A stretch of DNA of 64,000 nt, taken from assembly GCA_964642015.1 (NCBI GenBank), contig CAZXLF010000002.1, forward strand, positions 95,678 to 159,677, given 5' to 3'. The notes beneath the pieces were generated by a model that was not told the DNA's origin, did not search any database, and worked only from the letters and a program-made list of their open reading frames with translations. A program made the translations under genes and the position numbers. The stretch is from an uncultured Planctomycetia bacterium. Its GTDB lineage: Bacteria; Omnitrophota; Gorgyraeia; 2-02-FULL-51-18. Shown piece after piece: positions 54,992-60,142 of the stretch (position 1 is the stretch's first letter; each line of letters opens with the position of its first letter).

Positions 54992-55240
54992 ATGGATAAA
55001 CAACAACGCCTCGAACTGTTAGTTCTTAGCCCTGAGCGCCTGATTTATGAAGGGCAGGCGAGCAGTATTGTTTTGCCAGGCGAGAACGGCGTTTTTGAGA
55101 TATTGCCATTCCATAAAAGGCTTCTGTCGCGGCTTCTTGCGGGGCTCGTGATCATTGATAGAAAAGTCATGAGGATCAAACGCGGTGTTGTAAAGGTGGG
55201 ATTGAATCGCGTGACCCTCATCGTCGAGGAAGCCACATGA
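54992..55240 (+). CDS. atpC: F-type ATPase epsilon subunit, N-terminal beta-sandwich domain only (no C-terminal helical hairpin)
   Basis: 82 aa; LELLVLSPERLIYEGQASSIVLPGENGVFEILPFHKRLLSRLLAGLVII matches epsilon N-domain pattern (L.v.ivtPe...eg.v..v..pg..GefgiLp.H.pl...L..G.v). Confidence 0.6.
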   Translation: MDKQQRLELLVLSPERLIYEGQASSIVLPGENGVFEILPFHKRLLSRLLAGLVIIDRKVMRIKRGVVKVGLNRVTLIVEEAT

Positions 55241-55319
55241 ACCCAGCACTTGACATTAAAATTTTCAATGAACTTATCAAGGGTTGGGCGAATCCGGATT
55301 TGGGAGGACTTTTAACGGG

Positions 55320-55544
55320 ATGAACCGCGATGTATCCATCATTTTGATCTTTTTTTTCTGCATTTTAGGTCCGTGCGCGGTTATTGCGTCATCCGGTTTT
55401 GCCAGCATCAACGCTTTGGGCAGGAATCCTTCTTCCGCGCCCAAAATATTTACAGCGATGATCATCATGCTGATTTTTGCTTCAGCCATATCTATTGTGG
55501 CGCTACTTGTGCTTTTTCAGCTTTATGCGCCCCCAACTCGATAA
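55320..55544 (+). CDS. F-type ATPase c-subunit-like hairpin protein lacking the conserved ion-binding carboxylate
   Basis: 74 aa from ATG 55320 (GGGAGG upstream); helix1-loop-helix2 aligns with c subunits (ILGPCAVIASSGFASINALGRNP | SSAPKIFTAMIIMLIFASAISIVALLVLFQLYAPP vs ...ARQPE...TxMv.G.A.aEs.gIy.L..a..lLya.P); position of essential Glu/Asp is Ser; GxGxGxG packing motif also absent. Confidence 0.5.
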   Translation: MNRDVSIILIFFFCILGPCAVIASSGFASINALGRNPSSAPKIFTAMIIMLIFASAISIVALLVLFQLYAPPTR

Positions 55545-55600
55545 CCCCAGTTCAATAAAGAAACAGCATATATGCGGCACTTGGAATTTATATAAAAATG

Positions 55601-55629
55601 TTGAAAATATAGTTAATTTATTGTAATAT
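55601..55629 (+). promoter_or_regulatory. candidate promoter TTGAAA - 17 nt - TAATAT in AT-rich 130-nt gap
   Basis: read at 55601-55606 / 55624-55629 upstream of b/delta-alpha-gamma-beta genes. Confidence 0.3.
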
Positions 55630-55674
55630 TTGATTAAAATAATGAGTTTTTATATACCATAGAATAGGTAATTC

Positions 55675-56394: not shown

Positions 56395-57871
56395 AGTGCA
56401 GACTGAAAAACCCTCAGCACACACTAAATTCGAGATCCGCGAAGTCGGAACGGTAAAATCGATCAAACAATTCATTGCGACGGCGTCCAATCTTGATTCC
56501 TGCATCAACGGGCAAATCGTGGAATTTGAGCGTGGGATGAAAGGTTTTGTGATGGGCTTTACCGAAGATAAGATACAGATCCTTGTGCTGGGCTCGCCGC
56601 GCGGGATCCGCAGCGGTGATGAAATTTATAACCGCGGAGAATCATTTTCTCTTCCGGCGGGCGAAAAATTTTTGGGCCGCGTGGTCAATGCACTCTGCGA
56701 ACCGCAGGATGGGCTTGGGCCGATACGTGCGGATGCCTATTTGCCGGTGTTTCAGGAAGCGCCGGGAGTGCTTGACCGCGAACAATTGACGCAATCACTT
56801 GAAACAGGGACTGTGGCTGTCGATGCGGGCATTCCCATTGCCAGAGGTCAGAGGCAGCTTTTGATCGGCGATCGCGGAACGGGGAAGACGACGATTGCTT
56901 TGGACGCGATGTTGAATCAAAAAGGGAAGGACGTCATTTGCATTTATTGCTGTATTGGCAAACCCTATTCGAGTCTTTTAAAGATCTTGAATCTTTTGCA
57001 TGAAAGGGATGCGATGTCGCATACGATCGTTGTAAGTGCGGTGGCGTCCACATCGCCGGGGGAGCAGTATATCGCGCCTTATGCGGCGGCGATGCTTGGA
57101 GAATATTTTATGAACACAGGCCGCCATGTTCTGGTTGCTTTTGACGATTTGACGAAGCATGCATGGGTTTATCGTCAGATCTCGCTTCTTTTGGAACGCC
57201 CGCCCGGCCGCGAAGCTTATCCCGGCGATATTTTTTATATACATTCCCAGCTTTTGGAACGGGCCGGCCGTCTGAAGGATGAGCTAAAAGGCGGCACGAT
57301 GACCTTTTTACCTATCATCGAGATCTTGCAGGGAGATGTGACGAGTTACATTCCCACGAATTTGATCTCGATCACGGATGGACAGATCTATTTTAATACA
57401 TCGCTTTTTAACAAAGGCATCAAACCGCCGGTTGATTTCGGGCTTTCAGTTTCACGTATCGGAAATAAAGGTCAATGGCCTGCGATGAGGGATGTGAGTA
57501 AGAGTTTGCGTCTCGAATATTTGCAATATCAAGAGCTTCTTTCTATGACGCAATTGCGTTCGGGAGGTTTATCCAAGGAATCGGAAGCGCGATTGAAACG
57601 CGGTGAAGCGCTGTCACAGCTTTTGATGCAACCTAAGAACAAGCCGATCTCGATCGCGGAACAGATCCTTTGCTTAATGGCGTTGAGTAGGGGCGTTCTG
57701 GATTCTTTGCCTGTATCGCAGATCAGGAAGTTTAGGCAAGCGATCTTGAGTTTTGCCAGAGCGACCGACGGCGCCGCTATTAATGAGTTGGAATCAACGA
57801 AAAAGATGACAGATTCGCTTAAAGAAAGGCTGATCGAAATTCTGAAAAAATATTTTACTTCGGGGACTTAA
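56387..57871 (+). CDS. atpA: F-type ATPase alpha subunit
   Basis: 494 aa; GQRQLLIGDRGTGKTTIALDAMLNQ Walker A, ...LLERPPGREAYPGDIFYIHSQLLERA..., ISITDGQIYF - near-canonical alpha sequence throughout. Confidence 0.9.
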   Translation: MAEVQTEKPSAHTKFEIREVGTVKSIKQFIATASNLDSCINGQIVEFERGMKGFVMGFTEDKIQILVLGSPRGIRSGDEIYNRGESFSLPAGEKFLGRVVNALCEPQDGLGPIRADAYLPVFQEAPGVLDREQLTQSLETGTVAVDAGIPIARGQRQLLIGDRGTGKTTIALDAMLNQKGKDVICIYCCIGKPYSSLLKILNLLHERDAMSHTIVVSAVASTSPGEQYIAPYAAAMLGEYFMNTGRHVLVAFDDLTKHAWVYRQISLLLERPPGREAYPGDIFYIHSQLLERAGRLKDELKGGTMTFLPIIEILQGDVTSYIPTNLISITDGQIYFNTSLFNKGIKPPVDFGLSVSRIGNKGQWPAMRDVSKSLRLEYLQYQELLSMTQLRSGGLSKESEARLKRGEALSQLLMQPKNKPISIAEQILCLMALSRGVLDSLPVSQIRKFRQAILSFARATDGAAINELESTKKMTDSLKERLIEILKKYFTSGT

Positions 57872-57879
57872 AAATTTAA

Positions 57880-58743
57880 ATGTTACCGGCCATTCATATT
57901 AAACGCACGATCGATTTCAATAAAAGCTTCAGAGCGCTTCTGGAAGTGTTGAAGCTCGTAGCCGTTTCGGAATATCACAATCTTGAAAGAAAATTGCAAA
58001 CGTTTGAACGACTTCAAAGTGTTTTGGGAGAATTTTTCCGCTGCATTGATACCGCTCAGATCGACCACCCTTTTTTAAAACCGGGGAACAGACCTATGGC
58101 TGTGCTGGCGGTGACCTCAGATGCCGGTTTGCTTGGTGGTATCAATATGCAAGTTGTCAGCAAGGCCGTGAGTCTGGTACGTGAGAATAACGGTCGTCTT
58201 ATCATTATCGGCGACCGCGGCGTGCTTTACGCCCAAGATTCGGGACTCTCGTTTACGCATTTCCCGGGTATTATCGATAGCCACCGCTATGCGCAGGCCT
58301 GCGAGATCAGGGACTACTTGACGCAGAAAGTAATGGCACACGAGTTCGGAGGAATTAAAGTCGTTTATCCGAGAGCCCATTCATTTGTGGTCCACCGCGT
58401 TGAGGTCGAAACGTTCATTCCTTTTATTCTCCCCGAAGGCACGGAGGTCGCCGAAAAATCAGCCGATAAATCTGAAGCGTCCAAGGATATTATTTTTGAA
58501 TCCACGCCGAGCGAAGTGATCGAATATCTGGCTTACATCATTTTTGGGCAGCGCTTGTTCGAGATTTTTGGGTTCAGCCGTGTTTGCGAGCAAGCCGCGC
58601 GCTATCTTCATTTGGAAGAAAGCTGCAATAAGATCGCTGAAATGAATAAAAAACTGCTGCTTCAATATTTCAGGCGCCGTCATGAGGTCATTGATTCCAA
58701 CATGCGCGAACTTTTCTCGGCAAGGAGCCTTTATGCCAAATAA
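57880..58743 (+). CDS. atpG: F-type ATPase gamma subunit
   Basis: 287 aa between alpha and beta; N-terminal [26 protein letters not shown] and C-terminal helix consistent with gamma. Confidence 0.65.
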
Positions 58744-58756
58744 AGGCGAGAAACAG

Positions 58757-60142
58757 ATGAACAATGGCAGGGTGGTCAGCGTCCAAGGACCTGTAGTCGA
58801 TGTTCAATTCACCAATTCGATGGATGTGCCGGATATTTACGGTGTGATCCTTGTTAAGGCGCTTGATGGGAGGCAAATCACGTTGGAAGTCGCCGAACAT
58901 CTGGCGAACAACACGGCGCGTTGCATCGCGATCCAGGCGACAGTGAATCTGCAGCGTCATGCGGTTGCCAAGCCTACCGGCAAGACGATCGAGATCCCGG
59001 TGGGGGACAGTTTGTATACGAGAGTTATCAATTGTATCGGCGAGCCGATCGATCAGCAAGGACCCATCGAATCAAAACTTTACAGCCCGATCCGCAGGCC
59101 TGAATCGGGAACGCGGGTACCAGATTTCAGCAAAGAAAAGATCAAAGGCGATGAGCTTCTTGAAACAGGTATCAAGATCATCGATCTTTTGTATCCTTTG
59201 GTTAAGGGCACGAAAACCGGGATACTCGGAGGCGCGGGTCTTGGAAAAAGTGTTCTGATGCTTGAGATCATTCAGCATATTGTGCAGAAGCATCAAGGAA
59301 GCTGCGTTTTTGCCGGTATTGGAGAGCGCCTGCGTGAAGGCAACGAACTTTATTACGAGCTTCGAGAGCATGGGCTTCACACAAAAACGATGATGACGTT
59401 CGGTCAGATGAATGATCCTCCGGGTGCACGCTACGGTGTCGCGATGACCGGCATAACGATGGCCGAAGCGATCCAGAGGCAAAATAAAGACGTGATCTTT
59501 TTTGCGGATAACGTTTTCCGTTTCATCCAGGCCGGCGCTGAGATCTCGACTTTGCTCGGCCGCGTACCATCGGAAACCGGCTATCAACCGACGCTGATCG
59601 CCGAATCGAGCGAATTTCACGAACGCATCCGCGATTCACAAGGTTCGGGAGGTTCGATCACATCGATCGAAGCGGTCTACGTGCCCGCCGACGATCTGAC
59701 CGATCCGGCGGTTGTTGCTATATTCACTTTCTTGAATTCATTGATGGTGCTTTCACGCGAAAGGGTCCAGATGGGTCTTTATCCGGCGATCGATCCGCTT
59801 CAGTCGTCCTCGACGAACCTTGATCCCGATGTGGTCGGTCAGAGGCATTATGATGTTTCGCAGGAAGTGATACGCACGTTCCAAAAATATGAAGAACTTC
59901 GCCGTATCGTCATGGTCATCGGTATCGACGAACTTTCCAAATCAGACCGCACACTTTATGAGCGTGCAAGAAAAGTGCAGAATTTTTTGACACAACCGTT
60001 TACTGTTGCGGAGCGTTATACCGGAAAAAAAGGGGATCACGTGCCGGTGGAAATGACGCTTGAGGGTTGCGAGAAGATCCTTTCAGGGAAACTGGATAAA
60101 AAACCGGAACAGGAATTTTACATGATAGGAGCGCTTACCTGA
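58757..60142 (+). CDS. atpD: F-type ATPase beta subunit
   Basis: [19 protein letters not shown]-terminus, [15 protein letters not shown]alker [22 protein letters not shown] (DELSEED variant); alternative upstream ATG 58733; stop TGA overlaps next ATG (TGATG at 60140-60144). Confidence 0.9.

Follow-up and report, generated by a model that had tools for sequence, protein, structure and literature searches.

An F-type ATPase gene set without an a-subunit beside giant-protein and pilus-like genes in Omnitrophota: a probable ion-uncoupled accessory of an adhesin apparatus

Rotary F-type ATPases are textbook ion-coupled machines, and their standard coupling sets an arginine of the a-subunit against a carboxylate of the c-ring. 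Here we describe a set of F-type ATPase genes that appears to have dispensed with both, located at positions 54992-60142 of a 64-kb stretch of DNA (the window) from contig CAZXLF010000002.1 of the Omnitrophota assembly GCA_964642015.1. The kind of system was already published in 2023 and the window is another member. Non-respiratory, or symbiotic, F-type ATPases adjoining type-4a pilus (T4aP) clusters were reported in Omnitrophota by Seymour et al. 2023 (PMC10066038), who found them in 56 of 111 Velamenicoccia species, V. archaeovorus LiM among them, and in all classes of Omnitrophota, with the ATPase and T4aP genes no more than 10 kb apart in 57 of 66 contigs. On the evidence of an alpha/beta phylogeny and of this co-location, a role in host-cell attachment and motility was proposed by analogy with Mycoplasma. 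Loci resembling type II secretion systems (T2SS) and pilZ genes have been described beside Omnitrophota giant genes by West-Roberts et al., where the ATPase goes unmentioned. Across 176 complete Omnitrophota genomes, alpha/beta were recovered in 125 and gamma in only 30 at strict thresholds (10.64898/2026.06.07.730766), a pattern that fits a divergent accessory set; the same study places V/A-type ATPases in most Gorgyraeia. We found nothing on the a, c, b/delta or epsilon subunits in the main text and supplements of Seymour et al., and literature searches beyond that paper returned no description of an a-less or carboxylate-less anatomy. As far as searched, this anatomy (no a-subunit, a degenerate c site, a stalk of N-ATPase style and a short epsilon) appears to be undescribed, as does the graded loss of the c carboxylate.

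Other departures from the canonical enzyme have been characterised. The F1-like ATPase of M. mobile is linked to gliding machinery at the cell surface (Beven et al. 2012, PMC3369863), and the Mycoplasma type 2/3 ATPases are encoded by a seven-gene cluster without c, b or delta that includes three unrelated proteins, one with 12 transmembrane (TM) segments, one with 3 TM segments and one with none (PMC3369863). N-ATPases, encoded in the order atpDCQRBEFAG, carry a fusion of b with the delta C-terminal region, have no atpH, and are accessory enzymes thought not to synthesise ATP (Dibrova et al. 2010, PMC2881411).

As in the published Omnitrophota loci, F-type alpha, beta and gamma genes stand beside genes for GspE/PilB, GspF/PilC and pseudopilins in organisms with giant open reading frames (ORFs), and in the window the ATPase lies within 10 kb of the type IV pilus (T4P)/T2SS-like genes. 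Orthology with the Omnitrophota ATPases is drawn from a gamma protein of a Candidatus Omnitrophica bacterium (P0246, 53% identical) and from the gene order of its locus, L020, rather than from a tree. We consider the window set to be probably an ion-uncoupled, ATP-driven accessory of a giant-adhesin/pilus apparatus, on the basis of gene content, motifs, losses, synteny and conservation, all of which are directly observed. Coordinates are positions in the window and all genes are on the + strand unless stated. The locus comprises the following features.

29796-54086, + strand: giant 8096-aa surface protein (ORF; Pfam Kre9_KNH Ig-like, Reelin subrepeat B and Big_7)
54127-54975, + strand: 282-aa membrane protein (p282), the predicted anchor module of the giant protein (homologue comparison)
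54992-55240, + strand: epsilon, N-terminal beta-sandwich only, 82 aa (PF02823)
55320-55544, + strand: c-subunit homologue, 74 aa (PF00137; the ORF opens at TTG 55284)
55601-55629, + strand: sigma-70-like promoter element (promoter scan and block conservation)
55675-56394, + strand: peripheral stalk b/delta-C protein (C-terminal part of PF00213; TIGR03321)
56387-57871, + strand: alpha (NF009884 and TIGR00962 cut-offs passed)
57880-58743, + strand: gamma (PF00231)
58757-60142, + strand: beta, 461 aa (TIGR01039 cut-off passed; upstream in-frame ATG at 58682)
60142-60597, + strand: stand-alone MshEN protein, of the type that binds cyclic di-GMP (c-di-GMP) (PF05157, NF053729)
60599-62791, + strand: GspE/PilB-type assembly ATPase with N-terminal MshEN and C-terminal PilZ domains (PF00437, PF05157, PF07238)
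62795-64000, + strand: GspF/PilC platform protein, running past the end of the window (PF00482, two stretches)

The ATPase genes are six close-set ORFs in the order epsilon, c, b/delta-C, alpha, gamma, beta, with the stalk and alpha genes sharing 8 nt. Beta and MshEN meet in an ATGA-type junction, where stop and start codons overlap, the gaps from MshEN to GspE to GspF are 1-3 nt, and both GspE and GspF lie within 3 kb 3' of beta. The catalytic core is intact by alignment with the proteins of the Escherichia coli atp operon. In beta the Walker A motif (GGAGLGK), GERLRE, the Walker B Asp and GLYPA are all present, the DELSEED of E. coli beta reading DELSKSD, and in alpha the Walker A motif GDRGTGKT is accompanied by the SVSRIG arginine finger. 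Alpha scores 543 bits with TIGR00962 (cut-off 484) and also passes NF009884, and beta scores 560 bits with TIGR01039 (cut-off 463). The best matches in the Protein Data Bank (PDB) are the F1 of Caldalkalibacillus, Fusobacterium and Bacillus PS3 (alpha 487 bits, beta 498 bits), the top beta match being 2qe7_D at 497.5 bits; canonical F1 beta chains span 407-498 bits, against 337.6 bits for the beta of the M. mobile G1-ATPase (9io5_A). By hidden Markov model (HMM) cut-offs and PDB scores, alpha and beta therefore appear nearest to ordinary bacterial F1; a grouping with Mycoplasma has been reported. Gamma is full length and divergent, matching PF00231 over residues 6-280 with 121.7 bits and reaching 93 bits with TIGR01146, below its cut-off of 194. 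The beta start most likely lies at 58757 rather than at 58682, since the former is called on an identical Logan contig and results in a canonical N-terminus; the ATG at 58682 overlaps gamma. A preliminary description of this DNA, made from the sequence alone, had reported a catalytically competent F1 set in an epsilon-first, beta-last order, placed on one strand between a giant surface-protein gene and pilus/T2SS-like genes and with no a-subunit gene anywhere in the 64 kb. As a whole that observation is confirmed, in its coordinates and subunit identities by the ORF map with Pfam and NCBIfam, in its motifs by the comparison with E. coli, and in the missing a-subunit by the searches that follow.

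No PF00119 (ATP-synt_A) match was found among the scanned + strand ORFs of at least 120 aa in the window, the giant ORF included. With the a-subunits of E. coli and of an N-ATPase-like operon (L010) as queries, tblastn gave a best E of 0.3 in the window and was also negative in six related loci; as a positive control, E. coli a recovered the L010 a-subunit at E = 1e-19. The polytopic membrane ORFs of the window occur only in a glycan-synthesis cluster (8967-10433 and 19573-20745), no 12-TM protein is found in or adjoining the ATPase cluster, and there is no PF09527 or other match between epsilon and c. None of the seven related locus types showed an a-subunit either, five of them (L004, L007, L017, L022 and L024) with the interval from giant gene to beta fully visible, and its loss appears to be family-wide in the loci read.

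The c homologue matches PF00137 with 30.9 bits against a cut-off of 24 and most likely starts at ATG 55320, as this start matches the N-termini of its orthologues. It is best read as a real gene on the + strand because it is 70-75% identical to its orthologues in L004 and L007, because differences between orthologues fall mainly at third codon positions of the + frame (for example 18/6/44), and because the competing antisense ORF (55277-55489, - strand), which was rejected also on these codon-position statistics, is broken by a stop codon in L004. On identical Logan contigs, automated annotation misses the c gene and places an antisense ORF of 63-70 aa there instead. At the position of E. coli Asp61 the window protein has Ser. 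Comparison of eight independent locus types (the window, L004, L007, L017, L019, L020, L022 and L024) finds the carboxylate replaced in six, by several different residues: Ser in the window, Ala in L004, L007 and L019, Gly in L017 and Phe in L022. L020 and L024 keep the Glu, yet no a-subunit gene is seen in them. An exhaustive HMMER search with the c protein over 1.84 billion representatives returned 56 relatives, which form a continuum with ordinary c subunits that carry the RNPEAAPKIQT...AFAEA pattern; 36 of these 56 representatives (50% clustering) have E at this column and the others have A, Q, S, F, G, N, T, V or R. Almost no variation is seen in the cytoplasmic loop GRNPSAAPKIF, which fits a kept contact with gamma and epsilon. 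The loss of the carboxylate is probably secondary, repeated and varied, as expected of relaxed constraint on ion binding. The preliminary description had called the c-like protein devoid of its essential carboxylate. This is correct for the window and does not extend to the family, while the homology of the ORF to c subunits is borne out by the PF00137 score and the HMMER links to canonical c.

The same search gave many-hairpin fusions. P0277 (1139 aa) has 15 matched stretches, each with the ...VLAEALGIYGLL... Glu motif, P0279 (968 aa) has at least seven matched c-hairpin stretches, and P0255 and P0260 (138-140 aa) are two-hairpin c duplications; all four are possible covalently linked c-rings.

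The peripheral stalk protein consists of an N-terminal TM helix, a b-like coiled coil and the delta C-terminal domain. Its alignment runs through the whole of E. coli b and on into the C-terminal domain of delta, and it can also be aligned with the b protein of L010. It matches the OSCP/delta profile PF00213 only at positions 95-170 of 172, the delta N-domain being absent. Its best NCBIfam model is TIGR03321, the alternate b of N-ATPases, which aligns residues 8-234 with model positions 8-240 of 246 at 62.5 bits against a cut-off of 224.7. Among its 33 homologues, the sole one outside the family belongs to the N-ATPase-like operon L010. The b/delta hybrid that the preliminary description had noted is thus structurally as described, although it is a stalk of N-ATPase-like type and not peculiar to this locus. 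Relative to E. coli, alpha lacks 8 residues at its N-terminus, where the delta N-domain would normally bind. Epsilon, also noted earlier as lacking its C-terminal inhibitory helices, indeed does so: PF02823 covers residues 8-81 of 82, the protein ends about 50 residues before E. coli epsilon, and its orthologues are 77-82 aa long.

Between the c and stalk genes, a block of about 37 nt (within 55590-55640) with the sequence TTGAAAATATAGTTAATTTAT(T/G)(G/A)TAA(T/G/A)ATTTGATTAA is nearly invariant, and it is kept in four loci whose flanking proteins share only about 50% identity. The block has the form of a sigma-70 promoter (TTGAAA-17-TAATAT/TAAGAT; in the relatives the -10 is TG-extended), and a conserved TTTGATTAA follows it. 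This suggests that the genes from b/delta through GspF may have their own regulated promoter, separate from that of the giant protein, anchor, epsilon and c. An RNA element in this spacer was considered and rejected, as there is no Rfam match and the spacer reads as a promoter.

Where contigs reach, the full gene order in the related loci is giant protein, (anchor), epsilon, c, b/delta, alpha, gamma, beta, (MshEN), continuing with GspE/PilB-PilZ, GspF, Peptidase_MA_2, pseudopilins, T2SSK and PilM/N/O. The giant ORF stands upstream of the ATPase genes in L004, L007, L017, L019, L022 and L024. The stand-alone MshEN gene is kept in L004, L007, L017, L020 and L022 and is absent from L024 and L023. 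A contig of the same species as the window (L015) carries GspF followed by Peptidase_MA_2, pseudopilins, T2SSK and PilM/N, and L020, a metagenome-assembled genome (MAG) labelled Candidatus Omnitrophica, has the same run from c through b/delta, alpha, gamma, beta, MshEN and GspE/PilZ to GspF. Its gamma protein is P0246, one of 324 gamma homologues. All ORFs are intact in every lineage examined, and synteny persists even at a stalk-protein identity of about 50%. Compared with L004/L007, the window proteins have identities of 83-85% for beta, 78% for alpha, 65% for GspE, 63-64% for gamma, 55-62% for epsilon and 50% for the stalk. As beta and alpha exceed GspE in this comparison, the catalytic core is probably more constrained than the adjoining pilus ATPase, and alpha, beta and c appear to be under strong purifying selection. 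In L017 (GCA_964606485.1, a 546-kb contig), a gene for a 518-aa TPR protein (11035-12591) lies between epsilon and c and overlaps both.

Upstream of the ATPase genes, the giant protein begins with a signal-like hydrophobic segment and contains Ig-like repeats; Tandem Repeats Finder found nothing in its gene at periods up to 500. The p282 protein that follows it has 96 homologues and no Pfam or NCBIfam match. Its hydrophobic segments are confined to the termini and it is not among the ORFs with at least four TM segments. In L022 (1-6531) the p282 module is fused to the giant protein as its C-terminal part, which stops just short of epsilon, and in a V. archaeovorus MAG (L016, 9797-10621) p282 follows a giant ORF with no ATPase nearby; more distant homologues are labelled Omnitrophota or V. 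archaeovorus. Because of the L022 fusion and the ATPase-free L016 locus, p282 is counted as part of the giant protein rather than of the ATPase, namely a predicted transmembrane anchor that was split off as its own gene in the window lineage. On the same grounds, and with hydrophobic segments at its ends only, it was rejected as a cryptic replacement for the a-subunit.

In the mechanism we favour, the ATPase would be an accessory of the giant Ig-repeat protein and of a T2SS/type-IV-pilus-like machine under c-di-GMP control. The complex would keep a catalytic alpha3beta3 head, a shaft of gamma and the epsilon N-domain, an inner-membrane c-oligomer and one membrane-anchored b/delta-C stalk, and would have lost the ion path, the a-subunit being gone and the c-ring carboxylate dispensable. 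Since the established coupling mechanism depends on these two elements, neither ATP synthesis from an ion gradient nor standard pumping would be expected, and the complex, with an epsilon devoid of inhibitory helices, would act as a dedicated ATP hydrolase. Hydrolysis would turn or strain gamma, epsilon and c against the stator anchored by b/delta, and the mechanical output would pass, in or at the membrane, to a partner in the place of the a-subunit, which is needed because otherwise no work would be done. Candidate partners are the transmembrane anchor module of the giant protein, GspF and PilMNO. Through this output the adhesin or fibre would be exported, positioned or moved while the cell attaches to others. 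Hydrolase-only activity, kept rotation and the identity of the partner are what we infer from the genes kept and lost. A bolder version proposes a new membrane rotary actuator, in which the F1 head would spin an ion-free, a-less c-ring and deliver its torque to the adhesin anchor or to GspF/PilMNO; we hold this version tentatively and regard it as rather doubtful.

The closest functional parallel is with the Mycoplasma type 2/3 enzymes, which likewise have an F1-like set of alpha, beta, gamma and epsilon and no a-subunit and are thought to hydrolyse ATP for a surface process. Unlike them, the window set keeps c and b/delta, and its beta is without the N-terminal extension. The Mycoplasma models NF045863, NF045936, NF045858 and NF045934 all failed, with 400.6, 301.1, 421.7 and 377 bits against cut-offs of 600, 520, 850 and 570, and the failures are consistent in L020, L022 and L024, so that membership of this group was rejected on curated cut-offs. 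The interpretation offered in the preliminary description, an F1-like motor repurposed as in Mycoplasma, is therefore supported in part: the recurrent a-less loci, always joined to the giant gene and to GspE/GspF, the c losses and the published view of the clade as non-respiratory favour repurposing, and the likeness to Mycoplasma is a functional analogy only.

Several observations weigh against an ion-uncoupled accessory. The c-ring Glu is kept in L020 and L024, so that some members may still bind ions. Alpha and beta score above the housekeeping atpA and atpD cut-offs and most resemble ordinary bacterial F1. Without an a-subunit, the b helix would seem to have no evident holder beside the c-ring. 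Finally, the near-clade stalk protein occurs in one GTDB species representative, the soil MAG GCA_035496715.1 (L013 and L019, on short contigs), and this closest labelled relative of the window subclade bears the label Candidatus Eisenbacteria; either the system reaches beyond Omnitrophota or the bin or label is wrong. The window itself contains no marker genes.

An alternative that also dispenses with ion coupling is an export energiser like the FliH-FliI-FliJ complex of flagellar and type III secretion, with the F1 head docking on a membrane gate, b/delta as its tether and gamma as its rod. ATP would then power the unfolding, loading or secretion of the 8096-aa protein or of pseudopilins and not motility. 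In both cases a module derived from rotary ATPases, with a tether like b/delta and a rod like gamma, would have been recruited to an export or fibre machine, and the established homology of FliH with b plus delta, of FliI with alpha/beta and of FliJ with gamma is reviewed in 10.1101/2021.01.01.425057. The constant placement of the set, immediately 3' of the giant gene and with the secretion genes following, is in keeping with such a role, and other giant adhesins use energy-transducing accessories, an example being SiiA, the auxiliary protein of the SiiE system (10.1101/641415). However, the signal-like N-terminal segment of the giant protein suggests Sec export, and no export-gate homologue occurs in the locus. 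The ATPase of type III secretion systems (T3SS) is a FliI homohexamer without c-ring or epsilon, whereas the window has distinct alpha and beta for a heterohexamer and keeps both epsilon and the c-ring. FliI/SctN models score 180-190 bits, far under cut-offs of 380-620, and TIGR01026 gives 165-178 bits against 379.5. We regard this explanation as unlikely, and, within an ion-uncoupled accessory, T3SS-like energising of export is somewhat less likely than a mechanical or motility role.

The set might instead, as the preliminary description had also allowed, be half of a split housekeeping atp locus, an ATP synthase or proton pump whose a-subunit, and perhaps a carboxylate-bearing c, lie elsewhere. 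Split atp operons are common in bacteria, which counts for this explanation, as do the canonical atpA/atpD scores of alpha and beta and the Glu of L020 and L024. As in canonical F1Fo (atpIBEFHAGDC), the catalytic motifs are kept and the order c, b, (delta), alpha, gamma, beta is colinear. Unlike canonical F1Fo, the window set has neither an a-subunit nor the c carboxylate, the delta N-domain or the epsilon C-domain, its epsilon has moved to the front, and it sits inside a secretion/pilus operon. Against a split locus, the c carboxylate has gone in six of eight lineages by different substitutions, the delta N-domain and the alpha N-terminal segment that binds it are both reduced, and epsilon is without its regulatory helices. 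The link to the giant gene and to GspE/GspF is moreover invariant in L004, L007, L017, L022 and L024, and the literature sets the clade apart from respiratory F-ATPases, with many Omnitrophota carrying separate F- or V-type enzymes. As judged from the window and the related loci, a split locus is very unlikely.

Derivation from a Na+/H+-translocating N-ATPase, with ions moving through an unrecognised channel partner, is suggested by the stalk, which is of N-ATPase type in that a long b carries the delta C-terminal region and there is no separate delta gene (atpH). The order epsilon, c, b, alpha, gamma is also colinear with atpDCQRBEFAG minus Q, R and a, and the GspF family has been proposed as ion channels (PMC10790770). 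Against this, the window cluster is without the a-subunit, AtpQ and AtpR of N-ATPases and without a c that, like theirs, has a complete Na+ site. In most of the locus types the c Glu is missing, as is the Na+ ligand set. Beta is last in the window set and first in N-ATPases. Alpha and beta reach about 500 bits where the N-ATPase cut-offs stand near 750 (505.9 against 750.5 for TIGR03324; 497.2 against 752 for TIGR03305), and N-ATPase membership was rejected on these curated cut-offs for the window and three further lineages. The comparison with F- and N-type model families envisaged in the preliminary description thus places alpha and beta with the canonical models and outside those of N-ATPases and Mycoplasma. 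Identity of alpha and beta to L010 is 40.6% and 46.0%, against 40.0% and 46.3% to E. coli, and gamma and epsilon show no specific similarity to L010 (4.7 and 1.9 bits); as a comparator L010 is only N-ATPase-like, being itself below the N-ATPase cut-offs. We consider an N-ATPase derivative highly improbable.

L010 (6892-13267) has the order beta, epsilon, AtpQ, a, c, b, alpha, gamma, with no atpH and no obvious AtpR. Its alpha and beta score 601 against 750.5 and 588 against 752 with the N-ATPase models and pass the canonical cut-offs, and it is perhaps an intermediate or atypical N-ATPase-like form.

That the set is a decaying remnant without function, as the combined loss of the a-subunit, c carboxylate, delta N-domain and epsilon C-domain could suggest, is contradicted by ORFs that are intact in every lineage examined, by intact catalytic residues, by an alpha/beta conservation of 78-85% that exceeds that of GspE, and by the third-position substitution bias of the c gene and the conserved promoter-like element, and we discount it almost entirely.

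The genes around the ATPase set are in keeping with a secretion and surface apparatus. GspE matches PF00437 with 441 bits and falls just under the cut-offs of both TIGR02533 and TIGR02538. Three predicted domains of c-di-GMP-binding type stand in a row, namely the stand-alone MshEN, the MshEN of GspE and its PilZ. Upstream of the giant gene lie the following.

22097-22975, + strand: AAA_22 ATPase (Pfam match)
22933-23610, + strand: T2SS C/B-like protein (Pfam T2SSC/T2SSB)
23607-25562, + strand: secretin (Pfam Secretin, Secretin_N and STN)
25559-26659, + strand: TPR protein (Pfam TPR)

Between the secretin/TPR genes and the giant gene, a 406-aa ORF (27774-28994) carries an IS200-like Y1 transposase domain at residues 22-121 only and is far longer than a typical IS200 TnpA. 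The first third of the window is occupied by a same-strand run of surface-glycan genes of about 20 kb (267-20748). It includes a UDP-GlcNAc 2-epimerase, many GT4/GT1/GT9 glycosyltransferases, FkbM methyltransferases, a carbamoyltransferase, a WecA-like GT4 and an 8-TM protein with no Pfam match.

Our results describe a family of F-type ATPases that keeps the rotor ring and stalk and drops the ion channel, inside a secretion/pilus operon beside giant adhesin genes. In practical terms, annotation pipelines miss or mis-call its divergent gamma, epsilon and c genes, c being called on the wrong strand here, and metabolic surveys may score the carriers as having an "incomplete ATP synthase"; inferences on the energy metabolism of Omnitrophota-like bacteria should therefore treat the set separately. 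The subunit anatomy and the graded loss of the c carboxylate sharpen the mechanistic question and make it testable. An ion-uncoupled accessory of this kind would be the second natural case of F1 reused for mechanical work, after the Mycoplasma gliding motor, and because its c-ring is kept, unlike in Mycoplasma, it would offer a direct route to how the rotor couples to a partner other than the a-subunit. If the rotary actuator form were true, the varied losses of the c carboxylate would record a shift from ion machine to mechanical rotor, and F-type ATP hydrolysis, not ion flow, would drive the fibre or adhesin with which these bacteria seize other cells.

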